Assembly: GCA_018818405.1 (NCBI GenBank)
Contig: JAHIRY010000041.1
Coordinates: forward strand, 1-20,450
Origin: Patescibacteria group bacterium
GTDB taxonomy: Bacteria; Patescibacteriota; Patescibacteriia; UBA11705; JABHMO01
Reading direction: 5' to 3'
DNA: 20,450 nucleotides
In this document: positions 3,411 to 20,437 of the stretch, in pieces
Position numbering within the stretch: the first letter of the stretch is position 1
How the letters are laid out: every line of letters starts with the position of its first letter
Notes under the pieces: generated by a model
Database searches by the model: none
Told to the model about the DNA's origin: nothing
What the model saw: only the letters and a program-made list of their open reading frames with translations
Translations under genes and position numbers: made by a program

Positions 3411-3477
3411 TAACATTCCGTGTAAAAATCGGAACTTGAATTTTGACAACAGAATTACGAAAAAAAGGAGGGGCAAA

Positions 3478-4245
3478 ATGGAAGATGCAGGAACAACAGC
3501 ATTGCTTTTGGCGGATTTCATTGCCTGGTATGGCATCGGATACAGCATTTCCCTTATTTTTGGAATAATGTTTACCGGGCTCGCCGGCATGGGAATCGGC
3601 GGGGAACATGACATTGACCACGATATTGACCACGATATTGACCACGACATTGATCACCATATCGGACATGACATTTCGCATGAGGCGGAGCATAACGCTC
3701 ATTCCGGAGACGGAGCGGGCGCTTCTCCTTTCAATCCGATCATGGCAGTTCTTTCTCTCGGGGGAATCGGGAAATACCCGCTCTCGATCGTTATGATGAT
3801 TTTTCTTTTCCTGTTTTTCGGCGCCGGAATTGTATCGATTTTCGGAATGAAATCATTTGGTTTGAATCTGACGGATTGCGGCTGGATTGCCTATGCGGCA
3901 AACTTTATCGCAACCTATTTTTCCACCGGATTAATTGCCGGATTGCTGCACAAATACATGCCATTGCACGAGAAAGAAACAACTTCAAAGGAATCTCTCC
4001 ATGGGAAAATCGCCAAGGCATTGTATTCTTTTGACAGTGAAAAGGGAATGGGATTTATTCATGTATACACGGATCGCAACGCGCTGATAGACGCACGCGC
4101 CCGAAACCTGGAACCGGATCAACCCATCAGGGCAAACCAGGATGTGATCATTGTCGCCTGGGACAAGGAGAATCAATGGTATGAAGTCGCGCCAATTTCA
4201 GAAGAAGATCAGCGACAGCTGGAACCGCGGGGTCAATCCCGCTAA
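3478..4245 (+). CDS. NfeD-like membrane protein (short NfeD/YuaF type) with an inserted His/Asp-rich repeat; partner of the downstream flotillin.
   Basis: RBS aggagg at 3463-3468, ATG at 3478. Two hydrophobic blocks are followed by a C-terminal beta-rich domain (GKIAKALYSFDSEKGMGFIHVYTDRNALIDARARNLEPDQPIRANQDVIIVAWDKENQWYEV) typical of the NfeD OB-fold. It lies immediately upstream of an SPFH/flotillin gene, the classic nfeD-floT/yqiK arrangement. Confidence 0.75.
   Translation: MEDAGTTALLLADFIAWYGIGYSISLIFGIMFTGLAGMGIGGEHDIDHDIDHDIDHDIDHHIGHDISHEAEHNAHSGDGAGASPFNPIMAVLSLGGIGKYPLSIVMMIFLFLFFGAGIVSIFGMKSFGLNLTDCGWIAYAANFIATYFSTGLIAGLLHKYMPLHEKETTSKESLHGKIAKALYSFDSEKGMGFIHVYTDRNALIDARARNLEPDQPIRANQDVIIVAWDKENQWYEVAPISEEDQRQLEPRGQSR
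3604..3675 (+). repeat. Six tandem 12-bp coding repeats (gaccacgatatt-like) encoding an (E/D/G)-H-(D/H)-I tetrapeptide repeat inside NfeD.
   Basis: Units fall at 3604, 3616, 3628, 3640, 3652 and 3664. The translation is EHDIDHDIDHDIDHDIDHHIGHDI, followed by SHEAEHNAHSGDG. Confidence 0.9.
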
Positions 4246-4261
4246 CAAGGAGGAGAATACC

Positions 4262-6241
4262 ATGGGATACATCATCTGGTTCACGGTCTCGATCTTGCTG
4301 ATTCTCGGACCGATCATCGCGCCGAGCGTCCTTCCCGGATTTGCCATGGATGGTTTTTCTCAGGTGCTATGCATCATCGCGGGGAGCGCCTCGCTGGTTT
4401 TCATGGCGTTTCTGGTGGTCGTCACCAGACTGTACCAGAAACCGACCCCAGACGAAGCGCTGGTCAGAAGCGGTCTGGGCGGACTTCAGGTTGCAATGGA
4501 AAAAGGAATCCTCTTCGTTCCCCTGCTACACACATTGTCGAGAGTCAGCCTAAGAACAATAAAAATTCCGGTAAAGAGAACCGGGACGGATGCTCTGATC
4601 ACGGCAGACTATCTTCGCGCAGACCTGCAAGCGGAATTTTACATTCGGATCACGGCCGACCAAAAGGAAATCATCAGCGCTTTCAGAACATTGGGGGTAA
4701 AAGCGACGGATGAAGCGGCGATCAAAGATCTCCTCCTGGACAAACTCGTCTCCGCGCTCCGGACAGTGGCAGCGAAATCCGATCTTTTCGACCTCAACAG
4801 CAATCGTGAAAAATTTGCCAGTGATGTAAAGGGCGCTGTCACAACAGACCTCTCTCAAAATGGATTCACGCTCGAAACAGTAACAATTTCCAATCTCGAC
4901 CAGGCAGACATCCGAGCTCTCAGGGAAAGTGAAAATGTTTTCAATGCGCGCGGAACGCAAAAAGCGGCGGAAATCATCCAGGACGCTCGGGTTCGTACAA
5001 ATGTTCTGGAAAGAGAAGCCAGCGAGGCAATCGAAGCGCAAAATGTTGCAACCAGGAAAAAAATTCTAGGGCTGGATCTGGAAAGAACACAAGCTGAAGC
5101 AAACCAGGCTCTTCAAGTTTCCATCGCCGAGGCTGAATCAAAGAAGAAAGCGGAAACTTTCCGCATTCAGCAAGAGCAAGATGTCGAGGCGAGAGAGATC
5201 GAGAAGTCACAGTTGCTGGCGCAGAGAGATCTCGAAAAACAACAAGCGATTGAAACTCGTGAAATCGAGCTGGCTCAAGCGGTGGAAACCGCAGATCAAG
5301 TAAAGAAAACGGCTGTCATTCAGGCGCAACAAGCGCAGGAAGTGGCAAACATCGAACGAGAGCAAGCATCTCTCGTTGCCACGGTCGCGAAGCAGAGAGC
5401 GGAAGAAGTGGCCAGAAGAGAACAGCAGATCGCGATCGCGCAGAAGGAAGGAGAACGCGCGGCAGCGGAAGCGATTCGGCTGATGGCGGAAAAAGACAGG
5501 GAAACCAATGCGCAGGCAGTTGCCACGGTGCAGGCGGTACAGACCGCGGAACGTGAAAAAGCACAATCAGTCCTGAAGGCTTCTGCCGCGGCGGAAACTG
5601 CCTATGTGACAGAGCAACGAAAGGCAGATGCCGAGGCATATCGCGCAAAGGCGATTGCCGAAGGAAAGATGGCGGCGGCTGAAGCTGACTTCGTGGCAAG
5701 AGTGAAGGCAGCGGAAGGCGAAAAAGCGGCAGCGGAAATGCGCGCGCTGGGTGCTCGGGCAGAACAGATTGTTCCCGTTGAAATCGAAAAGGAGCGGGTC
5801 GCGGTCGATCGCGGTCGGCAGATGATCGCCGTGGATGTCGCGAAACAGCAGGTCGAAGTCGAGGCGCGGCAAGTGGAGCTGGAAAGGCAGCGACTGCAAC
5901 AGCAAGATGAACATGGAAAGGTCGCAATCGATTTCGAAATCGCAAAGCTCGAAATCGAAAGGCGGGCGGACGTTCAGATCGCGACAGCGCAAGCAACCGC
6001 GCAGATGCTGTCCTCGGTGAAGATGACTCTCTTCGGCACGCCGGAAAACGCGGCTCAGATGCAGAGAGAATTTTTCACTGCCATGCGGCTCGCAAACGCG
6101 GGAGAAGGACTGCTTTCAGGACTGGACGGCGCTCCGCGCGTCAAAGAAGTGGTGACCAAAATGGGAGAAACCGCCGGCGCTCTGGCGGACATGGTTCTCA
6201 ACAAGCCTGCGGCAACGGAAACGACGGCGGAAAAAGAATAG
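4262..6241 (+). CDS. Flotillin-like SPFH/Band-7 family protein (FloT/YqiK type) with an extended Ala/Glu/Gln-rich coiled-coil region.
   Basis: RBS aaggaggag at 4247-4255, ATG at 4262, 16 nt after the NfeD stop. An N-terminal hairpin membrane anchor is followed by an SPFH-like segment (EALVRSGLGGLQVAMEKGILFVPLLHTLSRVSLRTIKIPVKRTGTDALITADYLRADLQAEFYIRI). About 350 aa of EA/EQ/AR-rich heptad repeats and a flotillin-type C-terminus follow. The coiled-coil DNA is locally GC-rich (~55%), which generates many spurious antisense ORFs in the track. Confidence 0.85.
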   Translation: MGYIIWFTVSILLILGPIIAPSVLPGFAMDGFSQVLCIIAGSASLVFMAFLVVVTRLYQKPTPDEALVRSGLGGLQVAMEKGILFVPLLHTLSRVSLRTIKIPVKRTGTDALITADYLRADLQAEFYIRITADQKEIISAFRTLGVKATDEAAIKDLLLDKLVSALRTVAAKSDLFDLNSNREKFASDVKGAVTTDLSQNGFTLETVTISNLDQADIRALRESENVFNARGTQKAAEIIQDARVRTNVLEREASEAIEAQNVATRKKILGLDLERTQAEANQALQVSIAEAESKKKAETFRIQQEQDVEAREIEKSQLLAQRDLEKQQAIETREIELAQAVETADQVKKTAVIQAQQAQEVANIEREQASLVATVAKQRAEEVARREQQIAIAQKEGERAAAEAIRLMAEKDRETNAQAVATVQAVQTAEREKAQSVLKASAAAETAYVTEQRKADAEAYRAKAIAEGKMAAAEADFVARVKAAEGEKAAAEMRALGARAEQIVPVEIEKERVAVDRGRQMIAVDVAKQQVEVEARQVELERQRLQQQDEHGKVAIDFEIAKLEIERRADVQIATAQATAQMLSSVKMTLFGTPENAAQMQREFFTAMRLANAGEGLLSGLDGAPRVKEVVTKMGETAGALADMVLNKPAATETTAEKE

Positions 6242-7182: not shown

Positions 7183-7207
7183 AAACGGCCGCAACGCGGC
7201 CGTTTTA
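7183..7207. terminator. Bidirectional hairpin terminator after paralog A.
   Basis: cggccgc (7186-7192), loop aac, gcggccg (7196-7202), then TTTT. An A-run lies on the 5' side. Confidence 0.7.
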
Positions 7208-8034: not shown

Positions 8035-8059
8035 AAACGGCCGCAACGCGGCCGTTTTC
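8035..8059. terminator. Bidirectional hairpin terminator shared by paralog B (+) and yidD (-).
   Basis: cggccgc (8038-8044), loop aac, gcggccg (8048-8054), TTTT at 8055-8058. The sequence is identical to the terminator after paralog A. Confidence 0.7.
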
Positions 8060-9617: not shown

Positions 9618-9653
9618 ATTCGTAACATTCGTAATATTTGTAAATTCGTAACC
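9618..9653 (+). repeat. Four phased 9-bp direct repeats (ATTCGTAAN) immediately upstream of the dnaA start.
   Basis: ATTCGTAA at 9618, 9627 and 9645, and ATTTGTAA at 9636, with exact 9-bp periodicity. The array ends 34 nt before the dnaA ATG. Confidence 0.85.
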
Positions 9654-9686
9654 ATCGCATAACAAAACATAAACAGAAACAAAATT

Positions 9687-11060
9687 ATGGAGGAAAAAAA
9701 TCAGCAAATTTGGCAAGCGGTGCTCGGCGAGCTGGAATTGACTCTCAGCAAGGCGAGCTTTACCACTTGGTTAAAAAATACATTCATTATAGAAAATGAA
9801 GACGGACGAGTGTTGATCGGCGTGCCGAATACTTTTTCCCAGGCGTGGCTGAAACAAAAATATCATCAGCAGATCTACAAAATTCTGCAAAACAATTCAA
9901 AGGAAAGAATACGGGAAATTAATTACAAGGTGCAAACACTGAAAAATTATCAGACGCAAATAGACAACATAAAGAAAACCATTGTTGAAGAAAGGTCTGA
10001 ACCGCGTCCGGCGGAGCAAACGGCAACCCAGCAGATCATTCTCAATCCAAAGTATAGATTTGAAACTTTCATTGTAGGAAAGGGAAATGAACTGGCGCAC
10101 GCGGCGTCAAAAGCTGTGTCGGAAAATCCCGGACTCACCTATAATCCGCTGTTCATCTATGGCGGAGTCGGACTGGGAAAAACTCATTTGATGCAAGCGA
10201 TCGGCAATGCGGCCGCGCAGAGAAATTCAGCAATAAAAGTGCTGTATGTGACCTGCGAACAATTTACCAATGATTTTATTTCCGCGATTTCATCGGGAAG
10301 AGCTGATGTCTTTGCGAAAACATACAGATCGCCAGATATTCTGCTGGTTGATGACATTCAATTTTTGACGGGAAAAGAAGGAACGCAAGAAGCTTTTTTT
10401 CACACATTCAATGATCTTCACCAGAAAAACAAACAAATTATCATCACTTCCGACAGACCGCCAAAAGCGATCGCAACATTGGAAGATCGATTGCTGTCGC
10501 GATTTGAATGGGGAATGATCGCGGATATTTCTCAGCCGGATCTGGAAACCAGAATCGCGATTCTTGAATTGAAATGCAAAGAAAAGGGACTTCCTCTGGA
10601 TCGGGACATTATCAATTACATTACATTGAACATTCAGAACAATATTCGAGAATTGGAAGGCGCGCTCAATAAAATTATGGCTTATTATCAGCTGAACAAA
10701 ATAACTCCGACGCTCGAAAACATAAAGAAAATTCTTTTTTCCATTTCCGCTTCCAGCAAAAAGAACGGAGCTGTTTCCGTCCGGCAATTGATTGAAACTG
10801 TTTGTGAATTTTACGAATTGGAAATGGAGGAAATGATGGGAAAAAGCCGGCAAAAAAGATTGGCATTCCCCAGACAAATAATAATGTACTTGCTCCGCGA
10901 AGAAATTCACGCATCATATCCGATGATCGGCCATGAACTCGGCGGCCGCGACCACACGACAGCAATGCATGCTCATGAAAAGATTGCGAGAGTGATTGAA
11001 GAAGATGAAAAAGTGCGGCAGGAAATCAATTTGATCAAACAAAAGGTCTATTCTTGTTGA
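9687..11060 (+). CDS. dnaA: Chromosomal replication initiator protein DnaA.
   Basis: 457 aa. Walker A GVGLGKTHLMQAIGN, Walker B LLVDDIQFL, sensor IITSDRPP, and C-terminal DNA-binding helix DHTTAMHAHEKI. Stop TGA is immediately followed by TAA. Confidence 0.97.
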   Translation: MEEKNQQIWQAVLGELELTLSKASFTTWLKNTFIIENEDGRVLIGVPNTFSQAWLKQKYHQQIYKILQNNSKERIREINYKVQTLKNYQTQIDNIKKTIVEERSEPRPAEQTATQQIILNPKYRFETFIVGKGNELAHAASKAVSENPGLTYNPLFIYGGVGLGKTHLMQAIGNAAAQRNSAIKVLYVTCEQFTNDFISAISSGRADVFAKTYRSPDILLVDDIQFLTGKEGTQEAFFHTFNDLHQKNKQIIITSDRPPKAIATLEDRLLSRFEWGMIADISQPDLETRIAILELKCKEKGLPLDRDIINYITLNIQNNIRELEGALNKIMAYYQLNKITPTLENIKKILFSISASSKKNGAVSVRQLIETVCEFYELEMEEMMGKSRQKRLAFPRQIIMYLLREEIHASYPMIGHELGGRDHTTAMHAHEKIARVIEEDEKVRQEINLIKQKVYSC

Positions 11061-11155
11061 TAAACTGTGAATAAACGGCGAAAAAGAATTGAAAAAACGT
11101 GTTTATAAACATTTTCCGATGTGAATAAAAAATAACGGGTTTCCCGAAAATGCAC

Positions 11156-11300
11156 TTTTCCACAGTTATCCACAATGTATCCACCTCCTTGCTGACAGAC
11201 TTATTCCACCAGCACTTTTTCTAAACTTAGCCCTTGAACGCACTTATCCACCAATATCCACAGCCTTATTATTATTATTAAATAAATATATATATAGTTA
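11156..11300 (+). promoter_or_regulatory. oriC core: DnaA-box cluster plus AT-rich DNA unwinding element (DUE) in the dnaA-dnaN intergenic region.
   Basis: Same-orientation boxes TTTTCCACA (11156-11164), TTATCCACA (perfect, 11166-11174), GTATCCACC (11177-11185), TTATCCACC (11244-11252) and ATATCCACA (11254-11262). These are followed by ttattattattattaaataaatatatatatag at 11265-11297, directly upstream of dnaN. Confidence 0.85.
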
Positions 11301-11316
11301 ACGTCTATAACACCCT

Positions 11317-12444
11317 ATGAAACTAACTTGCCTGCAAGAAAATTTAAATTCAGGATTACAAACGACCGGACATTTAGTAAACAAGAACGTGAACCTGCCC
11401 ATTCTCAACAATGTTTTACTGGAAGCGAAGGATGGAACATTGAAACTATCGAGCACTAATCTGGAAATAGGAATAAGCGCGACCGTTCGATGCAAAGTGG
11501 AAACCGAAGGCGCGTTCACTGTTGACGCAAAACTTTTGGCTGATTATGTGAATCTGTTGCCGAATGATCAGATTAACATCGAAAAAGACGCGGACGATTC
11601 GTTGAAATTGACCTGCCGAAGTTCTTCCACAAAAATAAAAGGTATTGCGTCCGACGATTTTCCGGTAATTCCTCAATTGGAAAAAGAAAAACCTTATAAA
11701 GTGAATATCAAGGATTTTAAAAAAGCATTGTCTCAAGTTATCTTCTCTGTTGCCGTGTCTGAAACCAGACCGGAAATTAGCGGAGTGCTGATGACTTTCA
11801 ATAAATTTGAGGCAAACAGTTTATATTTGGCGGGAACAGACAGTTATCGTTTGGCTGAAAAGAAAATTGCAGTGGCTGAAAATACCGAGGAAAAGGAAGT
11901 GATTGTTCCGGTAAAAGCATTGCAAGAGGTTTTGCGAATTTTGAATGGTTTGAAAGATCAGATGAATGCGCCGGAATCCATTGATTTATTTATCTCAGAC
12001 AATCAAATATTGTTTTCCGGTGAAGGTTTTGAATTGATTTCCCGACTGATCGAAGGACAATATCCTGATTATAAACAAATAATCCCCAAAGAAACGAAAA
12101 CAACCGTGACTGTTTCCACTTCGGACTTGACGAAAGTTATAAAAACCGTAGCGTTATTTTCAAAAACCGGTATTTTCGATGTAAATTTGGTTTTTGATCC
12201 GGGCAGAGGCCTAGTAATTCGCGCGGCCAATATTCAAGTCGGCGAGAGCACTTCTGAAATTGATGTTGAATTTGTGGGAACAAACAATGAAAGCACGATC
12301 AATTATCGTTATTTGTTGGAAGGATTGAGCAATATTGACGCATCGGAAATAAAAATCAGCTTGGTTGACGGAAATATTCCGCTTTTGATAAATCCGAAAG
12401 ACAATGACGATTATTTGTACATTATTATGCCGATTCGGCAATAA
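11317..12444 (+). CDS. dnaN: DNA polymerase III beta sliding clamp DnaN.
   Basis: 375 aa with typical clamp N-terminus (MKLTCLQENLNSGLQTTGHLV) and three-domain length. Immediately downstream of dnaA. Confidence 0.95.
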   Translation: MKLTCLQENLNSGLQTTGHLVNKNVNLPILNNVLLEAKDGTLKLSSTNLEIGISATVRCKVETEGAFTVDAKLLADYVNLLPNDQINIEKDADDSLKLTCRSSSTKIKGIASDDFPVIPQLEKEKPYKVNIKDFKKALSQVIFSVAVSETRPEISGVLMTFNKFEANSLYLAGTDSYRLAEKKIAVAENTEEKEVIVPVKALQEVLRILNGLKDQMNAPESIDLFISDNQILFSGEGFELISRLIEGQYPDYKQIIPKETKTTVTVSTSDLTKVIKTVALFSKTGIFDVNLVFDPGRGLVIRAANIQVGESTSEIDVEFVGTNNESTINYRYLLEGLSNIDASEIKISLVDGNIPLLINPKDNDDYLYIIMPIRQ

Positions 12445-12445
12445 A

Positions 12446-12492
12446 AAAAAATGTAGAGGCGCATTGCAATGCGCCTCTACATTTTTTTTTGT
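12446..12492. terminator. Perfectly palindromic bidirectional terminator after dnaN.
   Basis: AAAAAAAAATGTAGAGGCGCATTG / CAATGCGCCTCTACATTTTTTTTT, a 14-bp perfect stem flanked by A9 and T9. Confidence 0.85.
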
Positions 12493-12903: not shown

Positions 12904-12990
12904 TGGTGCCGCGGGCCGGAATCGAACCGGCACGGATTTGCATCCGCAGGATTTTAAGTCCTGTGTGTCTACCAGTTTCACCACCGCGGC
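12904..12990 (-). tRNA. tRNA-Leu (anticodon TAA).
   Basis: 87 nt. Acceptor gccgcgg/ccgcggc, anticodon arm cagga-cttaaaa-tcctg, 15-nt variable arm cggatgcaaatccgt, T-arm gccgg-ttcgatt-ccggc, encoded CCA. Confidence 0.92.
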
Positions 12991-13005
12991 TCGCGTTTTG
13001 AATTC

Positions 13006-13079
13006 TGGAGCGGGAGACGGGATTCCCTTCGATGCGACTCAGGGTCGGCTTCTCATCCTCTTTAAAATAAAACTTCTTT
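13006..13079 (-). repeat. tRNA-trailer insertion element: conserved ~54-nt core followed by a 20-nt direct copy of the tRNA-Gly 3' end (incl. CCA).
   Basis: 13006-13025 (tggagcgggagacgggattc) is identical to tRNA-Gly 3' end 13080-13099. The core 13026-13079 is homologous to the cores of the tRNA-Lys-associated repeats at 20121-20361. Confidence 0.8.
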
Positions 13080-13155
13080 TGGAGCGGGAGACGGGATTCG
13101 AACCCGCGACCTCAACCTTGGCAAGGTTGCGCTCTACCAACTAAGCTACTCCCGC
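13080..13155 (-). tRNA. tRNA-Gly (anticodon GCC).
   Basis: 76 nt. Acceptor gcgggag/ctcccgc, anticodon arm caacc-ttgccaa-ggttg, T-arm gcggg-ttcgaat-cccgt, encoded CCA. Confidence 0.92.
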
Positions 13156-13194
13156 AAATATTTGATAAAAGGTGTAAATATTGTATCAAAAAGT

Positions 13195-13225
13195 ATTATA
13201 TAGTCAATATTGAAAAAAGAAAAGA
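13195..13225 (-). promoter_or_regulatory. Candidate promoter for the tRNA-Gly/tRNA-Leu operon.
   Basis: Minus-strand TATAAT (rc of 13195-13200) lies ~40 nt upstream of the tRNA-Gly 5' end. TTGACT (rc of 13203-13208) is too close to be its -35, so the -35 element is unclear. Confidence 0.3.
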
Positions 13226-13331
13226 GCCCCATCTGAAATCAGACGAAGCCCCCTTTTTTTTCGTTTATGACGGCCGAGAATTAAGAATAAGATTAAGGAG
13301 AAGAATTAAGGAATGGAATCGCCGTTTTTAT

Positions 13332-13793
13332 TTATTGCAAACAATAATAGCCGATCGCGCCAAACGCGACGCTCACATTCAGGCTGTTTTTTTGTCCGAG
13401 CATGGGCAAGTGAATTATTTTGTCGCATTGTTTTTGAATTCCGGGCAAAATTCCGGTTTTCTCGTTGCCAAGAATTATCAACACTTTGTTTTTCGGTTTC
13501 CACCTTCTGTAATCAATGCTTTTCCGTTTGTTTAATTCCAATGCGATTATTTCATATCCGGCTCGTTTATATTCTTCAATTGTCGGTTTCAAGTTAAAAA
13601 TATGTTCCCAGTCAACTTTTTTTTCAGCTCCGAGCGCGGTTTTTCCCACTTTCGGTTGGTTTTTCGGAGTTGGAGAATATCCGGCGAGAAAAAGTTTTTC
13701 CGCGCCAATGGCGTCAGCGGTTCGAAAGATTGAGCCGATGTTGTAGGCGCTGCGGATTTTGTTGGCGACTACTATAATTTTTCTTTTTTTCAT
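13332..13793 (-). CDS. SpoU/TrmH-family (SPOUT) RNA 2'-O-methyltransferase.
   Basis: 153 aa: MKKRKIIVVANKIRSAYNIGSIFRTADAIGAEKLFLAG ... LILGNEKTGILPGIQKQCDKIIHLPMLGQKNSLNVSVAFGAIGY. The SPOUT motifs are present (N.GSIFRTA, LG.E..G, SLNVSVA). Confidence 0.85.
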   Translation of the reverse strand: MKKRKIIVVANKIRSAYNIGSIFRTADAIGAEKLFLAGYSPTPKNQPKVGKTALGAEKKVDWEHIFNLKPTIEEYKRAGYEIIALELNKRKSIDYRRWKPKNKVLIILGNEKTGILPGIQKQCDKIIHLPMLGQKNSLNVSVAFGAIGYYCLQ

Positions 13794-13840
13794 AAATATG
13801 AAATCATGATAAAATGTAAAAGCAAAATAAGCAAATCAAT

Positions 13841-14851
13841 ATGGAAGAAGAGACAAACAGAATTATTTCCGCGTCATTGGAAGACAATGAAAACACCTTT
13901 GATGTGACGCTTCGCCCAAAAGTGCTGGATGAATTTGTCGGACAGTCGCAAATAAAAGAAAATTTAAACATTTTCATTGAAGCTGCGAGGTGAAGACAAG
14001 AACCGCTCGAACATGTGTTGCTGTACGGTCCGCCCGGATTGGGAAAGACCACCCTGGCGCACATAATCGGCCGTGAGATGAATGTAAATGTAAAAGTGAC
14101 CTCTGGTCCTGCGATTGAAAAAAGCGGCGACCTGGCGGCCATTTTGACGAATCTGGAACCGGGCGATGTTTTGTTTATTGACGAGATTCATCGATTGCAT
14201 CGGATCATTGAAGAAGTGTTGTATTCCGCAATGGAAGATTTTGTTTTGGATATTATAATAGGCAAAGGACCTTCGGCAAAAACATTGCGCATTGATCTGC
14301 CGCAATTCACTTTGATCGGCGCGACAACGAAAATTTCCCGGCTGTCCTCCCCTCTTCGCGATCGATTCGGCAATACTTATCATCTGGAATTTTACGATGA
14401 AAACGATATTAAAAAAATAATTTCGCGCACAGCGAAAATATTAAAAGTGGAAATAGAAGACGAATGTTCCGCCGAATTGGCGCGGCGCGCGCGAAAAACT
14501 CCCCGCATAGCCAACCGGCTTTTGAAGAGAATCCGCGATTACGCCGAGGTGAAGAACAATGGGAAGATTGATTCTACCGTTATCGGAGCGGCTTTAAAAA
14601 TGTTGAATGTTGACGCGCTTGGATTGGATCAAATTGATCGCAGAATTCTTTTGACAATAATTGAAAAATTCAATGGCGGTCCGGTCGGACTGAATACCAT
14701 TGCGGCGGCAACTTCCGAGGAAATGGATGCGATCGAAGATGTTTATGAACCGTTTTTGCTCCAGCTCGGTTTTCTAAACAGAACAAATCGTGGTAGAATA
14801 GTGACAGCGGAGGCTTATAAACACCTGGGAATTAATTTTTCTCAGCAGTAA
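13841..14851 (+). CDS. ruvB: Holliday-junction helicase RuvB, reading frame interrupted by an in-frame TGA at 13991-13993.
   Basis: ATG at 13841 gives [50 protein letters not shown], then TGA, then in the same frame [26 protein letters not shown]...FIDEIHRL...[15 protein letters not shown]. This aligns continuously to RuvB (RPK.LDE..GQ......[22 protein letters not shown]). The ORF track only shows the part from GTG 14015. Confidence 0.8.
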
Positions 14852-14902
14852 TAAGTGTTTTTTGAGAGACGCTCTATCAAGTTGTTTATTTTTCTTTAAA
14901 AT

Positions 14903-15145
14903 ATGTCAATTTCGATTTCAATATTTTTGATTTTATATCTCATTTATTTGCTGATTTTTTTTATTTTCAGTTTGTTCAATGTTTGGCATTTGCAGAGATT
15001 CGGTTTTTCCGGCTTTTGGCCGTATGCCATAACATTCGGTTATATTGCGGCGACAATTTTGGTTTTGGCCGTCACTGTTATTTTTTTGATTCCCATAGAT
15101 TGGTCGACTCCACTTCCTTTTTTTGAAAGTTTGCCGATCGATTAA
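14903..15145 (+). CDS. Small hydrophobic membrane protein (2-3 helices).
   Basis: 80 aa, ATG start. ISISIFLILYLIYLLIFFIFSLF and YIAATILVLAVTVIFLIPI. It sits 18 nt upstream of the bPH-domain gene. Confidence 0.55.
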   Translation: MSISISIFLILYLIYLLIFFIFSLFNVWHLQRFGFSGFWPYAITFGYIAATILVLAVTVIFLIPIDWSTPLPFFESLPID

Positions 15146-15163
15146 TTTTTTATAATCATATTT

Positions 15164-15718
15164 ATGTATAGCAGAAGGAATTTTCCCAATCAAAAGCCGA
15201 ATGAACATGTGATTTTGTTTTTGCGTCGGCATTGGATCGCGCCTCTAAAGATTTTTTTTATCGGTTTTATCTTGGCGCTGATTCCGGTTCTGCTGTATTT
15301 CGTTTTTTCTTCAATCTCGGCGCTCTGGGAACGAGAATCATTCATGGCAATGTTTATTCTGGCGCTGAGCGGATATTATTTATTTGTTCTTCTTTATACT
15401 TTTGCGGATTTTGTGGATTATTATCTGGATGTCTGGATTGTGACAAATGAACGAATTATAAATATTGAACAAAAAGGACTTTTCGCACGAGTTATTTCCG
15501 AGAAGGAATTGGTAATAATGCAGGATATCACTTCAGAGATTGAAGGTTTCTGGCATACTGTTTTCAATTACGGCGACATATTCATTCAGACTGCAGGAGA
15601 AAAAGAACGATTTGTTTTCAAACAAGTCCCCCGCGCGGATGAAGTTGCCAGGAAAATCAGCAATCTTGTCAGTGAATCAAGGCGTTTGCGGCAAGGCGCG
15701 CTGGAAGATTGGAATTAA
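15164..15718 (+). CDS. Membrane protein with bacterial PH domain (DUF304/bPH_2, YdbS/YdbT-like).
   Basis: EHVILFLRRHWIAPL, two transmembrane helices, then a C-terminal PH-like region with WIVTNERIINIE...G.F.R....K...I..I......G.WHTVFNYGDIFIQTAG. Confidence 0.75.
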   Translation: MYSRRNFPNQKPNEHVILFLRRHWIAPLKIFFIGFILALIPVLLYFVFSSISALWERESFMAMFILALSGYYLFVLLYTFADFVDYYLDVWIVTNERIINIEQKGLFARVISEKELVIMQDITSEIEGFWHTVFNYGDIFIQTAGEKERFVFKQVPRADEVARKISNLVSESRRLRQGALEDWN

Positions 15719-15744
15719 AAATCAAATTTAGATAAAGCAAAAAA

Positions 15745-15775
15745 TAGGGCAGCACCCTATTTTTTGTGTGGAGAT
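15745..15775. terminator. Bidirectional terminator between the bPH-domain gene (+) and the SpoIID-like gene (-).
   Basis: aaaaaATAGGGcagcaCCCTATttttttg. Confidence 0.75.
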
Positions 15776-15809
15776 TTTTTTGTTTGAAAGAACAGTTAAA
15801 TTTATCTGA

Positions 15810-17480
15810 TTAATAAATCTTTTCCAAATTGATTCCCGTGTAATAATGTTTTAATAAACTGTCATAGGTTGAGCCGTCTTTGCTTGCTCTCGCTTTTGCG
15901 TCTGAAGCATCGATTCCGACTCCGTGTCCCCATAATGTTTTACCTTGCGTATATGGCGTTATTACTGATATGAGATACGGAACAACCCTGCCCCAAATTT
16001 CTTTGAAGCTTCTTGTTTTTCCGTCTCCGCGAGCGAAGTATGCTGCAATAATCAATTCATTATCAAAAGTCGCGACCATTCCTTTTGTTTCATCTGTTGC
16101 TGTAATCAAGTTCGGCAAGATTTGTGAGACAACATTGCCTTTGTAAACTTGGTCATAGTAAGAATCAACATCATAGAATTCCTTGGCGTGTTTTGTTCCC
16201 GAATTATGATGATAAAGCGCGTATGTTCTGGCCGCCACTGTCATTGTTTTCAAATATTCCAGCGGATCTGAGTTTGAAGTTTCTTTTATTCCTTTGACAT
16301 AATCTTCGAGGGAAAGTGTTTCAATGAGCCAGGCTCGTTCTCTGTAATCGTTGTATCTGATTTCCAGATCGCCGATGAATTCATTGAAATTAACGCTGGT
16401 ATTCCATGTCGGAACATCCTTCAAGCTTGTGATTTCAAAAATTCCGTTGTTGAAGTTTTTTAATTTTAAATAAGCCGTTGATCTGATTGTTTTGTCAATA
16501 AAATCAAATGTGTATTGTTTGGTTGAATCAATAAAGTTGAAAGTGATTTGCGTATTTGCCGGAACCGAGGCGAGCAATGTGTCATTCTCATCATAAACTT
16601 GCCAGGCTTTGTCGTTTCTTATTGTAATCGCTTCGTCCATTGTAAACAATCCGACTCGAATGTCCGGGCCTTTTTCCGGCAAACCGAATTTTACAACACA
16701 GCTCTGCGCTTCATCTCCTTCAACCGCGTTGGCGATTTTCAGATTCAGCGTGCAGACTGGTGCGGCCGCAGGAACGATCGGCACGGTTGCAGCGTCTCCG
16801 CTTTGAATGGCGGAAGAATTCTCTTGATTGACGACCGGAGTTATTGCGACAACCGGCTTCGAAGGATCTTCCACGATATTTAAGATGACATTGATGTCAG
16901 TATTTTGAATGAGAACATTGTCTCTTACCAGTAAAAAATCGCCGGAATATGTTCCGAGTTTGCTTGGTGCTGCCAGCGCGAAGACAAATGTTCCGATTTC
17001 TCCCGGCGCAACAGAAGCTTCTTTCAACACTGCCGGCAAGTATGGATCCGGCCAATAGTCGTGCCGGAATTTTAATCCGGAGGTTGAAGATTTGAGGTAA
17101 ACCGATTTTCTCGTCCAAGTTGAGGTTCCCGTATTTTTGAATTTGAGCGTGAATGTAAATGCGCTGCCCGGTTTCAAATTTACGGTAGAGAATGATTGGC
17201 TGACTTTTTCCGCTTTTGTTTCCAATTCAGCTGCCATTGCCGACTCGATTCGGAGAAAGCTTGGCGCTGACGGAGATGTTGAGAAAAAAGTATTTTCAAT
17301 CATTCTGAGTCCAAATGATAAACTTATTACCACGAGCAAGGAAAATAAAACATGCATCAGAAGATTTGCCGTGGATTCTTCGTTTGAAAGATTGGAATAA
17401 AAATTATTTCGGCCAAGTTTTTTTTCTTGGGCGTTTTCATTCCAGAAGTATGAGAGAAATTTTGTGTTTGTTTGTATCAT
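15810..17480 (-). CDS. Secreted/membrane-anchored SpoIID/LytB-domain protein with N-terminal beta-sandwich (CARDB-like) repeats.
   Basis: C-terminal ARTYALYHHNSGTKHAKEFYDVDSYYDQVYKG...RGDGKTRSFKEIWG...VGIDASDAKARASKDGSTYDSLLKHYYTG is the SpoIID/LytB amidase-enhancer domain. Upstream segments such as FTFTLKFKNTGTSTWTRKSVYLK resemble Ig-like adhesion modules. Start is uncertain: ATG 17480 (MIQTNTK...) is chosen; alternatives are GTG 17564 and ATG 17357 (MHVLFSLLVV...). Confidence 0.8.
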   Translation of the reverse strand: MIQTNTKFLSYFWNENAQEKKLGRNNFYSNLSNEESTANLLMHVLFSLLVVISLSFGLRMIENTFFSTSPSAPSFLRIESAMAAELETKAEKVSQSFSTVNLKPGSAFTFTLKFKNTGTSTWTRKSVYLKSSTSGLKFRHDYWPDPYLPAVLKEASVAPGEIGTFVFALAAPSKLGTYSGDFLLVRDNVLIQNTDINVILNIVEDPSKPVVAITPVVNQENSSAIQSGDAATVPIVPAAAPVCTLNLKIANAVEGDEAQSCVVKFGLPEKGPDIRVGLFTMDEAITIRNDKAWQVYDENDTLLASVPANTQITFNFIDSTKQYTFDFIDKTIRSTAYLKLKNFNNGIFEITSLKDVPTWNTSVNFNEFIGDLEIRYNDYRERAWLIETLSLEDYVKGIKETSNSDPLEYLKTMTVAARTYALYHHNSGTKHAKEFYDVDSYYDQVYKGNVVSQILPNLITATDETKGMVATFDNELIIAAYFARGDGKTRSFKEIWGRVVPYLISVITPYTQGKTLWGHGVGIDASDAKARASKDGSTYDSLLKHYYTGINLEKIY

Positions 17481-17570
17481 ATTATGAAAAATTGCGTGAA
17501 GACCGAAGCGAATTGAGAAAATAATAAAAGAGCGCTTCGGAAAAGACACTCTTTCTTTGATCACATTATC

Positions 17571-17599
17571 ATTATAGCAAACTTTGATTTAAAAGTCAA
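17571..17599 (-). promoter_or_regulatory. Consensus sigma70 promoter (TTGACT-N17-TATAAT) for the SpoIID-like gene.
   Basis: Minus-strand TTGACT (rc of 17594-17599), 17-bp spacer, TATAAT (rc of 17571-17576). The 5' UTR contains a perfect 8-bp hairpin, ccgaagcg...cgcttcgg (17511-17548). Confidence 0.7.
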
Positions 17600-18240
17600 G
17601 CTCCAAAAGAAAAGTTTTGCTGATTTATTCCCGGCAGACGCAATTTCAGTTCCTGCAAAAGCGATTTAAAATCAATTTCATTGTATTTTAAATCAACCTT
17701 GTCAGCGTCAACGCGGAAAATCGGACAAAGAGAGAATGTTTTTTCCCATTCTTCATACAAATAATTTAAATTTTCAATGTATTCTCGGTCAATGGCCGTT
17801 TCCATTCCCCTTTCTCGTTTTTTTATGTGAGAGAGACAGCGTTCTACTGAGGATTGCAGAAAAATAATCAGATCCGGCGTCTGCAAGTTCGGAACAATGG
17901 AATCATATAATTTTTTGTAGGTTTGCCAATCGGTTTCCGACAGATGATTCCTGCGATACAGGTTTTTCACGAAAATTTCCGCGCCTTCGTAGATGCAGCG
18001 ATCCTGAATGATGGAATTTTCTTTTTTTAATATTTCGAAATGATCGCTGATCCGGCTGGCAAAGAAAGCTGTTTCGCAGTGGAATGCCCATTTGCGCATG
18101 TCTTCATAAAAATTTTCCAGATAAGGATTTTGGCAAAACGGTTCTTGGAATAATTCCCATCCGAGATTGGCTGACAGTTTTTTCGCGAGACTCGACTTTC
18201 CTGCTCCGATATTGCCGGCAATGGCGATAAAATATTTCAT
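17596..18240 (-). CDS. Deoxynucleoside kinase (dAK/dGK/dCK family).
   Basis: Start ATG rc of 18238-18240 gives MKYFIAIAGNIGAGKSSLAKKLSANLGWELFQEPFCQNPYLENFYEDMRKWAFHCETAFFASR, with P-loop plus the dNK ERS-type motifs, 214 aa. The track's longer ORF is an in-frame upstream extension without support. Confidence 0.85.
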   Translation of the reverse strand: MKYFIAIAGNIGAGKSSLAKKLSANLGWELFQEPFCQNPYLENFYEDMRKWAFHCETAFFASRISDHFEILKKENSIIQDRCIYEGAEIFVKNLYRRNHLSETDWQTYKKLYDSIVPNLQTPDLIIFLQSSVERCLSHIKKRERGMETAIDREYIENLNYLYEEWEKTFSLCPIFRVDADKVDLKYNEIDFKSLLQELKLRLPGINQQNFSFGA

Positions 18241-18392
18241 AGAAAAAGTTTGTTTCTTTCTTTTTATTATTTTATCAAATTTATTCCGGTTGCGACAGTT
18301 TTTGTTTCGGGGCTTTTTGTAAAGCCGTTCGACTTTACAACGGCAACTCGTTGTGTTAATCTGCGGTATTGCCACTGGAAAAGGAGGTGTAC

Positions 18393-18746
18393 ATGAGCGC
18401 GCAGTTGGAACCAAAAGAAATTTCTTCCTTTCTGAAATGGAAAAAAGAGAAGGAGCATGATATCGAGGTGAGACAGGCAACCTTGGCCGGGCAGCTGGCT
18501 GATGCCGTGCCCGAACGTTTCCGCGGATTGATGAAAGAAGATAATTTGATAATTCAGGAGTTGGTTCGCGATGGACTGGCGAGGAGAAATTATGGCAGCT
18601 CCGTTGCCGTTAGCTATGGATTCAAAACATTGAATGAATTTGCAATTGCTTTTGGTCAGTTGAGAGAGGCGCGGGCCGGAGTCGTTTATGTAGATGTTAG
18701 CTGGAGAGGCCCGGAAATGTTTTTCGTCGGTTATTCCGCCGTTTAG
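18393..18746 (+). CDS. Hypothetical protein (117 aa), GC-richer than its surroundings.
   Basis: Strong RBS aaggagg at 18381-18387, ATG at 18393. No recognisable motif. GC ~48% versus ~38-40% for neighbouring genes. Followed by a hairpin at 18853-18880. Confidence 0.6.
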   Translation: MSAQLEPKEISSFLKWKKEKEHDIEVRQATLAGQLADAVPERFRGLMKEDNLIIQELVRDGLARRNYGSSVAVSYGFKTLNEFAIAFGQLREARAGVVYVDVSWRGPEMFFVGYSAV

Positions 18747-18849
18747 GCGTTTCGGGTTTTTCAAGAGACTTCAATCACAAACTGCGTTCAATCAGGGGAA
18801 TGTCGAAATCGGCATTCCTCTTTTTCTTTGGGAGAATTGTGAAGAATAA

Positions 18850-18885
18850 AAACGAGGTGAGTTTTGTGACTTCACCTCGCAGTTG
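18850..18885. terminator. Hairpin between the convergent 18393..18746 (+) and zinc-ribbon (-) genes.
   Basis: cgaggtga ... tcacctcg 8-bp stem at 18853-18880. Confidence 0.45.
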
Positions 18886-18887
18886 TT

Positions 18888-19274
18888 TCAATCCGTTTGT
18901 TTCCGGATCCAATTGTTCTGACCGCAGAATGGGCATTTCCGATTTTCGTGATCAGTTTCCACATGTCCGCAACCGGCGCAGACAAAAGGATATTCATGTT
19001 TTTCTCTCGGCTGGATTTCAATGTCCCATGGAATACTGACGGTTTCTTCCTCCGCCGGGAGAATGGTTTCGCTTTCAGCTGAACGAATAAAGTTGCGCAA
19101 TTTTCGCCGTTCCACTCTTTGCGTGTGCATGGCCGCTTCTGACGGCGAATATTGGCTGGTGAGAAAAAAAAGAATTCCTTTTACATTTGTTCTTTGATCC
19201 CGAGAGAACATTGTGCCGCAGCGGGCGCAAAAATTTCCGCCCATGGCTGATGTGCCGCATTTTTTGCATTTCAT
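18888..19274 (-). CDS. Double zinc-ribbon protein (two CxxC...CxxC modules).
   Basis: RBS agaggaggg upstream on the minus strand. N-terminal CKKCG...CARCG and C-terminal CAGCGH...CPFCG. 128 aa. Confidence 0.7.
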   Translation of the reverse strand: MKCKKCGTSAMGGNFCARCGTMFSRDQRTNVKGILFFLTSQYSPSEAAMHTQRVERRKLRNFIRSAESETILPAEEETVSIPWDIEIQPREKHEYPFVCAGCGHVETDHENRKCPFCGQNNWIRKQTD

Positions 19275-19395
19275 GAGCGAGCCCTCCTCTGTTTTGTGTC
19301 AAATAAATGAACCTGTTGTTCAGTGAAGAATTTATCAGACCGCGTTATTTGTGTCAATAAAGAAATTTTATTAGAAATTTTTGAGAACAAAGAAG

Positions 19396-19427
19396 TATAA
19401 ATTAAAAAACATCAACTTTCGTTGATA
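19396..19427 (-). terminator. Rho-independent terminator after tRNA-Ala (minus strand).
   Basis: Minus-strand atcaacgaaagttgat followed by gttttttaattt. Confidence 0.6.
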
Positions 19428-19523
19428 TTTCGGATAGTCGTTTACTAAGCTGGCGTTATAAAAGATTTACTTTTATAGAATTGTCGAATGGCCTGCCATC
19501 CGAAGCTCCCGCGGAGCGTAGGA

Positions 19524-19600
19524 TGGTGGACCCTAAGGGATTCGAACCCTTGACCTCTTCCATGCCATGGAAGCGCTCTAGCCAGCTGAGCTAAGGGCCC
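19524..19600 (-). tRNA. tRNA-Ala (anticodon GGC).
   Basis: 77 nt. G3:U70 wobble in the acceptor stem (gggccct/agggtcc), anticodon arm cttcc-atggcat-ggaag, T-arm aaggg-ttcgaat-ccctt, encoded CCA. Confidence 0.9.
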
Positions 19601-19702
19601 ATGAAGTTACATGCTGCGGCATGACTTCAGGGCACCCCGCCCCTCGCGAGGAGCGGGGGCAAGCCCTTTGTCAGATACCGCGTGACTTTTTTTTGTATTT
19701 TT

Positions 19703-19945
19703 TTAAATCAGTCTTTTGTTCCGAAAAGCAATGCCTGATGATGTTTTCAAATATTTTTCAAAAGCAGATGCTTTCTTTTTGTCGGTGAAGGCACAATGGT
19801 AAAGTATTTTCCAAGGGCGGAACCTGTTTGTATGCGCAGACTTTCCTTTATTGTGTTCTTCCAATCGGTTATCAATGTTTTCTGAAAAGCCGGTATATAG
19901 TTGTTTAGGAGAATTGATGCTTTGGATGATGTAGACGAAATACAT
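19703..19945 (-). CDS. Small GIY-YIG nuclease-superfamily protein (UPF0213/YhbQ-like).
   Basis: MYFVYIIQSINSPKQLYTGFSENIDNRLEEHNKGKSAHTNRFRPW matches the GIY-YIG core (Y.VYI......LYTG.T.....R...H..G..A..T....PW). 80 aa. Confidence 0.8.
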   Translation of the reverse strand: MYFVYIIQSINSPKQLYTGFSENIDNRLEEHNKGKSAHTNRFRPWKILYHCAFTDKKKASAFEKYLKTSSGIAFRNKRLI

Positions 19946-20120
19946 TCTTTAATAACTTATTATTGGAAAATCGATACCCCTTTTTCTCTGCGCGAGTTTT
20001 TTTTAGTTTTGTTTGATGGCTTGCCATTCGTAGCGCAGCCATTTTAAAACAACTAAACAAGGAAAAATTTCAGCCCTTCTTCGCTGAAGCTACGAAGGGC
20101 ATTCTTCGCTGCGCGAAGAA

Positions 20121-20361
20121 TGGCGGGCGCAGAGGGACTCCCCTCGGCGCGGCTCGGTGCAGGCTTCTCGTCCCTCTTTTTCAATAAAATCTTTTGTGTT
20201 TGGTGGGCGCAGAGGGACTCCCCTCGGCGCGGCTCGGTGCAGGCTTCTCGTCCCTCTTTTTCAATGAAACATTTTTGTGTTTGGTGGGCGCAGAGGGACT
20301 CCCCTCGCGCGACTCAGGGCAGGCTTCTCGTCCCTCTTTTTCAATGAAACATTTTTGTGTT
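20121..20361 (-). repeat. Three tandem ~80-bp direct repeats, each a 20-nt copy of the tRNA-Lys 3' end (incl. CCA) plus a ~60-nt conserved core, abutting the tRNA-Lys gene.
   Basis: Units 20121-20200, 20201-20281 and 20282-20361 all begin tgg(t/c)gggcgcagagggactc, the reverse complement of the tRNA-Lys 3' terminal 20 nt. The unit nearest the tRNA is the best conserved. They generate the spurious + ORFs 20120..20347 and 20194..20403. Confidence 0.9.
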
Positions 20362-20437
20362 TGGTGGGCGCAGAGGGACTCGAACCCCCGGCCAAGTGCT
20401 TAAGAGGCACCTGCTCTACCGACTGAGCTATGCGCCC
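20362..20437 (-). tRNA. tRNA-Lys (anticodon CTT).
   Basis: 76 nt. Acceptor gggcgca/tgcgccc, D-arm gctc-agtcggta-gagc, anticodon arm ggtgc-ctcttaa-gcact, T-arm ggggg-ttcgagt-ccctc, encoded CCA. Confidence 0.92.

Follow-up and report, generated by a model that had tools for sequence, protein, structure and literature searches.

UGA codons lying in frame within conserved genes are read as sense in some lineages of the Patescibacteria. Code 25, in which UGA specifies Gly, is used by the Gracilibacteria/Absconditabacteria (Rinke 2013 and Campbell 2013, as summarised in PMC13293708), and reading of UGA as Trp has been newly reported for the Patescibacteria family JAKLIH01, as in the Mycoplasmatales (PMC13092985). 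UGA can also be passed while serving as a stop: in an E. coli reporter, Trp-tRNATrp acting against release factor 2 (RF2) gives about 2-4% readthrough (PMC10570021). In bacterial selenocysteine recoding an in-frame UGA is combined with a SECIS element. Finally, in bacterial nonsense polymorphisms and young pseudogenes a sense codon becomes a stop through the change of one base, near-identical strains retain the intact allele and the rest of the gene is undecayed.

Here we describe an in-frame TGA in ruvB, the gene of the Holliday junction branch-migration ATPase, on a 20,450-nt contig of an uncultured Patescibacteria MAG; the whole of this stretch of DNA was analysed and is referred to as the window. 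The locus resembles the code 25 genomes in belonging to the same phylum-level group and in having an in-frame UGA within a conserved protein. In those genomes, however, many UGAs fall at conserved Gly positions, a tRNA-Gly(UCA) is present and UGA is unused as a stop, whereas here a single UGA falls at an Arg/Lys position and UGA terminates genes. JAKLIH01 likewise offers a Patescibacteria lineage with in-frame UGA, although that family reads UGA as sense with a genome-wide, Codetta-supported signal, while at the codon studied here a sister strain has Arg and none of the homologues has Trp, and UGA serves to terminate genes. Near-cognate readthrough of the kind measured in E. coli (PMC10570021) would apply here with the same basal leakiness and could give a little RuvB with Trp at residue 51 (W51), but this is a general property of UGA rather than a site-specific one, and stimulatory context or structure was not found at ruvB. 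With selenocysteine recoding the locus shares the in-frame UGA; unlike selenoprotein genes, ruvB has neither a SECIS-like hairpin nor Cys homologues, and RuvB is not a selenoprotein family. From bacterial nonsense polymorphisms and young pseudogenes it differs in nothing of note, the case here being a DNA-repair gene in an uncultured Patescibacteria MAG: the change is one base from sense to stop, near-identical strains carry the intact allele and the rest of ruvB is undecayed.

The ruvB gene and the products of its interrupted frame

The ATG (13841-13843), the TGA (13991-13993) and the terminal TAA (14849-14851) of ruvB lie in one common frame, in which the TGA is codon 51. Translation of 13841-14851 revealed no frameshift and confirmed the first-pass annotation of this DNA, which had described RuvB homology as continuous across the TGA. 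The intact allele, found in other assemblies, encodes 336 aa and in Pfam searches matched RuvB_N over residues 24-182 (profile 1-159/159, E=1.7e-79) as well as AAA_lid_4 (1-74/74) and RuvB_C (2-71/72). The P-loop domain, the AAA-lid and the C-terminal winged helix are thus present in the expected order and at full length, as is characteristic of RuvB. The closest solved structure is that of E. coli RuvB (9dx3, E=8e-127, residues 4-332), and the best named RuvB matches come from Patescibacteria, Falkowbacteria and Kuenenbacteria, in line with the NCBI designation of the organism as 'Patescibacteria group bacterium'. When GTDB species representatives were scanned by contig, a conspecific genome was not found and the best RuvB match was 76% identical.

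The stop falls within the P-loop domain, 12 codons upstream of Walker A. Among 119 homologues the residue at codon 51 is Lys (46) or Arg (35) in 81, followed by Gln (11), Asn (8), Gly (6), Glu (4), Met (2) and Leu (2), and Trp or Cys is found in none of the 119. The TGA had been placed at a variable residue; this much stands, with the correction that the variable codon 51 sits between the invariant A48 and R52. A stop at codon 51, or elsewhere in the aligned gene, was seen in 0 of 80 species-representative ruvB loci.

Two truncated products can be read from the TGA allele (Table 1). The N-terminal fragment lacks Walker A. The first in-frame start after the TGA is a GTG just upstream of Walker A, and the product of the residual frame is likely dead because it lacks eight invariant N-terminal residues (L24, R25, P26, G34, Q35, A48, R52 and H58), which bears out the earlier suspicion that it would probably be non-functional. 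Required parts are therefore missing from the truncated RuvB products, as in a nonsense allele or young pseudogene. Deletions of ruvB are viable in E. coli, and the description of the gene as essential is not correct for this one well-studied model.

Table 1. Coordinates of ruvB, its TGA allele and other features of the window
Feature	Positions	Strand	Evidence or remark
Membrane protein with (HDID)n His/Asp repeat	3436..4245	+	Overlaps the start of the SPFH/Band-7 gene
SPFH/Band-7 protein, 696 aa	4151..6241	+	Long Ala/Glu/Gln-rich coiled-coil tail
Tandem paralogue, 239 aa	6455..7174	+	No Pfam match
Terminator hairpin	about 7185..7207		Identical to the next hairpin
Tandem paralogue, 233 aa	7324..8025	+	No Pfam match
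Terminator hairpin	about 8037..8059		Identical to the preceding hairpin
tRNA-linked module	12996..13079	-	3' of a tRNA gene, same strand
ruvB (Holliday junction branch-migration ATPase), interrupted at codon 51	13841..14851	+	Translation, Pfam, structure match
Premature stop codon TGA (R51*)	13991..13993	+	Base 13991 is T here, C in two near-identical assemblies
N-terminal fragment, 50 codons + stop	13841..13993	+	Exact 50-aa product also in JGI/IMG (P0121)
Residual ORF, 278 aa, from GTG codon 59	14015..14851	+	Same 278-aa product in JGI/IMG (P0002)
Second SNP, in SpoIID/LytB-like gene (15810-17564)	16602	-	Only other SNP versus sister assemblies
tRNA-Lys-linked module array	20121..20381		3.2 tandem copies, period 80-81, 95% matches

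Use of TGA in the window

The window contains rnpA, yidD, dnaA, dnaN and ruvB together with genes for a TrmH/SpoU methyltransferase, a SpoIID/LytB-like protein, a deoxynucleoside kinase (dNK), an SPFH protein and a polysaccharide-synthesis membrane protein. Under code 11 the genes other than ruvB are full length against Pfam profiles and none has an in-frame TGA: DnaN, TrmH, RnpA and dNK, like RuvB itself, cover their profiles end to end, and the Polysacc_synt protein is full length. TGA terminates 5 of the 16 credible genes, among which the ruvB TGA is the only in-frame stop, and the 20 listed ORFs hold 59 TGG and 278 GGN codons against one in-frame TGA. The gene dnaA ends in TGA-TAA. Both tandem paralogues end in ..GIN-TGA, and an identical hairpin, AAACGGCCGCAACGCGGCCGTTTT, comes next at a different phase; this G+C-rich hairpin and its T-run are offset by one base between the two copies, and the sequence after the two TGAs is therefore non-coding. 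The first-pass annotation had drawn on these genes, noting that TGA ends both paralogues (7174 and 8025) and dnaA and that a shared terminator follows in differing frames, and had considered a global reassignment of UGA unlikely. Both points hold, and the tally of in-frame TGAs that it had suggested, run here within the window, found none in the conserved genes other than ruvB. The window also encodes four tRNAs (Leu-TAA, Gly-GCC, Ala-GGC and Lys-CTT), with no suppressor tRNA among them. The lengths of ORFs called with TGA as a sense codon were not a discriminating control, as many spurious ORFs arose in every locus, code-11 relatives included. Overall, the DNA of this organism that could be compared, 20 kb plus about 13 kb, points to the standard bacterial code, and the ruvB TGA is very unlikely to be a genetic-code change.

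Some further features of this part of the window are listed in Table 1. The tandem paralogues share the C-terminus ..IPEINSR(P/Q)P(N/D)GIN. G+C content is 50-55% in the region 3436-6241, well above the level of about 40% elsewhere in the window.

Alleles of ruvB in near-identical assemblies

A protein search recovered, from ENA and Logan, a 336-aa RuvB (P0001) that is 100% identical to the product of the window except for Arg at residue 51. At the DNA level, the 36-kb ENA contig ERZ27247128 k141_715468 (L001) is 99.93% identical to window 12904-20220 (7.3 kb), and the Logan contig SRR6514274_211637 (L002) is 99.97% identical to window 13113-19573 (6.5 kb), with no gaps; both have CGA at codon 51. 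Exactly two differences separate the window from the Logan contig over 6,461 shared bases, at 13991 (T vs C) and 16602 (C vs G). A further SRR6514274 contig (L086) is 100% identical to window 9620-12472 (dnaA-dnaN), with 0 SNPs in 2,853 nt, and minus the SNPs the window is identical to other assemblies over >9 kb. The change from CGA to TGA is a single C-to-T transition at a CpG; the TGA allele thus lies one base from the intact allele of a near-identical genome, as expected of a nonsense polymorphism. Comparison with orthologous ruvB genes, which had been proposed as a check on the TGA, accordingly gives CGA in the near-identical assemblies and no stop in the species-representative loci.

The annotation of the window at NCBI is in keeping with an interrupted gene. 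The consecutive proteins MBU1132499-MBU1132503 (locus tags KKC32_*) are TrmH (499), an 80-aa protein (500), a PH-domain protein (501), SpoIID (502) and dNK (503). Although ruvB lies between the first two of these it has no protein accession, and it was therefore probably treated as a pseudogene by the annotation pipeline, which is a further likeness to bacterial nonsense polymorphisms.

The stop allele is also found outside the window. JGI/IMG holds the exact 50-aa and the exact 278-aa RuvB pieces, each on a 7,765-nt contig, and therefore a second assembly with the same split ruvB, its stop codon being deduced from the two protein fragments rather than read from DNA. Two exact-pattern scans of metagenome contigs, one for the sequence around the SNP with N at the variable base and one for the first part of the 278-aa ORF, gave no match, nor did a scan of viral contigs. 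The second SNP separates these assemblies further. Residue 321 of the SpoIID/LytB-like protein is Trp (TGG) in the window and Cys (TGC) in the ENA and Logan assemblies; the JGI protein (P0187), encoded on the same 7,765-nt contig as the split ruvB, has Cys, whereas MBU1132502.1 (P0186), the SpoIID protein of the 20,450-nt NCBI contig, carries Trp, so that neither the NCBI nor the JGI consensus is a copy of the other. As Trp321 is the conserved state, lying in an AWQV motif in 4/4 relatives, the window is not simply a lower-quality or noisier copy.

Three haplotypes are on record: TGA at codon 51 with Trp321 (NCBI, the window), a ruvB stop after codon 50 with Cys321 (JGI/IMG), and CGA with Cys321 (ENA and Logan). 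Together with the presumed ancestor (CGA with Trp321) they make up all four combinations, which suggests either recombination or a mosaic consensus assembled from co-existing strains. On either account, both codon 51 alleles appear to occur in real data. In ruvB, a stop results from about 3.9% of single substitutions of any kind and from 1.2% of transitions. One stop among just two SNPs is thus somewhat uncommon, yet unremarkable when many windows are scanned. The two SNPs (R51* in ruvB and W321C in the SpoIID-like protein) are both radical and neither is synonymous, which would fit a very recent divergence in which deleterious variants have not yet been purged by selection.

Separately from ruvB, the assemblies carry modules of 60-81 nt that lie 3' of tRNA genes and on the same strand, in the window (Table 1) and in the ENA contig (L001 7911-8000 and 8140-8222). 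The genes that they follow are those of tRNA-Lys(CTT), tRNA-Gly(GCC) and, in the ENA contig, one more tRNA. In each module an A/T-rich spacer comes first, then a common core, GAGGRAYGAGAAGCC, and lastly a perfect repeat of the final ~20 nt of the tRNA before it, with the CCA. Four copies of the core lie in the window vs 0.02 expected, the loci of related species have none, and the modules have no Rfam match. Folding of the modules showed no unusual energy; the 3' part can be drawn as a minihelix resembling a T-arm/acceptor. The modules may be remnants of att sites, or else a tRNA-like element that acts in processing or as a decoy. The tRNA-Lys-linked module, tandemly repeated in the window, is single in the 99.9%-identical ENA contig (L001 7911-8011), reflecting either a difference between near-identical strains or collapse or expansion in assembly, and the NCBI contig ends just past the array. 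At the other end of the shared region, the window and the ENA contig cease to match precisely where tRNA-Leu(TAA) has its 3' end (window 12904, minus strand). From there the window runs on to dnaN, whereas L001 1-693, the stretch up to the contig end 693 nt away, is unrelated to it, has a higher G+C content and codes for a 158-aa protein without a Pfam match. In the Logan assembly there is likewise a break between 12472 and 13113. Either the tRNA-Leu junction varies among strains, through insertion of an island or a rearrangement, or the contig end is chimeric.

Origin and meaning of the TGA allele

The ruvB TGA is most likely a nonsense polymorphism, or a young pseudogene, of an ordinary and familiar kind. 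Judging from the sequence comparisons, it is very probably a real nonsense SNP (Arg51 to stop, CpG C-to-T) segregating in an uncultured Patescibacteria population that uses the standard code. A recent nonsense mutation was among the options left by the first-pass annotation, and it is the one to which the evidence points, with CGA in sister assemblies and a recurrent stop allele. The TGA would have arisen from CGA by a C-to-T transition at a CpG and would now segregate within a natural population. Translation of the TGA allele would stop after 50 residues at a UGA presumably read by RF2, and any 278-aa product of reinitiation at GTG 14015 would be missing the conserved N-terminal section of its ATPase domain. 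As with every UGA, a near-cognate tRNA (Trp) may let a few percent of ribosomes through at most, and such leaky readthrough could give some full-length W51 RuvB because residue 51 tolerates many amino acids. The TGA allele of ruvB would thus be a young pseudogene whose function has probably been lost, and tolerably so.

An error of sequencing, consensus or assembly, with the organism truly CGA and the T an artefact of the window's assembly, is unlikely. It would account for CGA in two other assemblies, and a C-to-T change is typical of deamination-type artefacts. The substitution, however, lies outside any homopolymer, elsewhere the window agrees with other assemblies base for base over >9 kb and has the conserved state at 16602, and the same split ruvB is found on a JGI/IMG contig with a differing consensus at that site. 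A simple consensus error, which had been among the options raised earlier, is hard to reconcile with a stop allele that recurs in a second, non-identical assembly. A genome-wide reassignment of UGA to Gly (code 25) or Trp (code 4) is suggested by the phylum, as Patescibacteria include both (PMC13293708; PMC13092985), and is nevertheless highly improbable: the 16 credible genes hold only one in-frame TGA while TGA ends 5 of them, including the two paralogues before their shared terminator, the sister strain codon is CGA for Arg, neither Gly nor Trp, and homologues have Gly at codon 51 in 6/119 and Trp in 0/119.

Readthrough that is programmed or selected, in which the UGA would be kept and decoded as Trp or Arg often enough to give functional RuvB at reduced dosage, is quite unlikely. 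UGA is the leakiest stop, with Trp-tRNATrp competing with RF2 for some 2-4% in the E. coli reporter (PMC10570021), residue 51 of RuvB is variable, and the stop allele is present in two assemblies. Against this, strains 99.97% identical have CGA, none of the relatives (80 species-representative loci) has a stop at the site, no suppressor tRNA is found among the four tRNAs of the window, and no stimulatory downstream structure or context accompanies codon 51. The fold of the 76 nt at 13985-14060 has an MFE of -19.1 kcal/mol vs a shuffle mean of -21 (z = +0.62); it is no better than shuffled, and neither a SECIS-like nor a readthrough-stimulating hairpin follows the UGA in this segment. Selenocysteine insertion and structure-stimulated readthrough were rejected on this result. 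No feature sets the ruvB UGA apart from an ordinary premature stop, and the option of programmed readthrough, also raised earlier, finds no support. A related and very unlikely reading is that CGA and TGA form a maintained on/off polymorphism in which leaky translation provides a low RuvB dose and the UGA allele reaches an appreciable frequency, as its occurrence in two assemblies with two different backgrounds at 16602 may suggest. A low dose of RuvB would then be either neutral or beneficial to the Patescibacteria cell as an episymbiont, with reversion or recombination regenerating CGA. Insertion of selenocysteine has nothing in its favour beyond the in-frame UGA itself and is improbable in the extreme, as no hairpin lies 3' of the UGA, Cys occurs at codon 51 in 0/119 homologues, RuvB is not a redox enzyme and the sister allele encodes Arg.

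With the nonsense polymorphism as the preferred explanation, the main value of the result is a negative one. An in-frame UGA in Patescibacteria suggests code 25 or code 4, but here it goes back to one CpG transition that is absent from near-identical strains, and gene callers and code-inference tools should take the ruvB TGA as a pseudogene or strain variant. For the organism itself, we infer that RuvB is lost in the strain with the TGA allele, or that the usual leakiness of UGA rescues it no more than weakly, which suggests that RuvB loss is tolerated at least briefly in this lineage.
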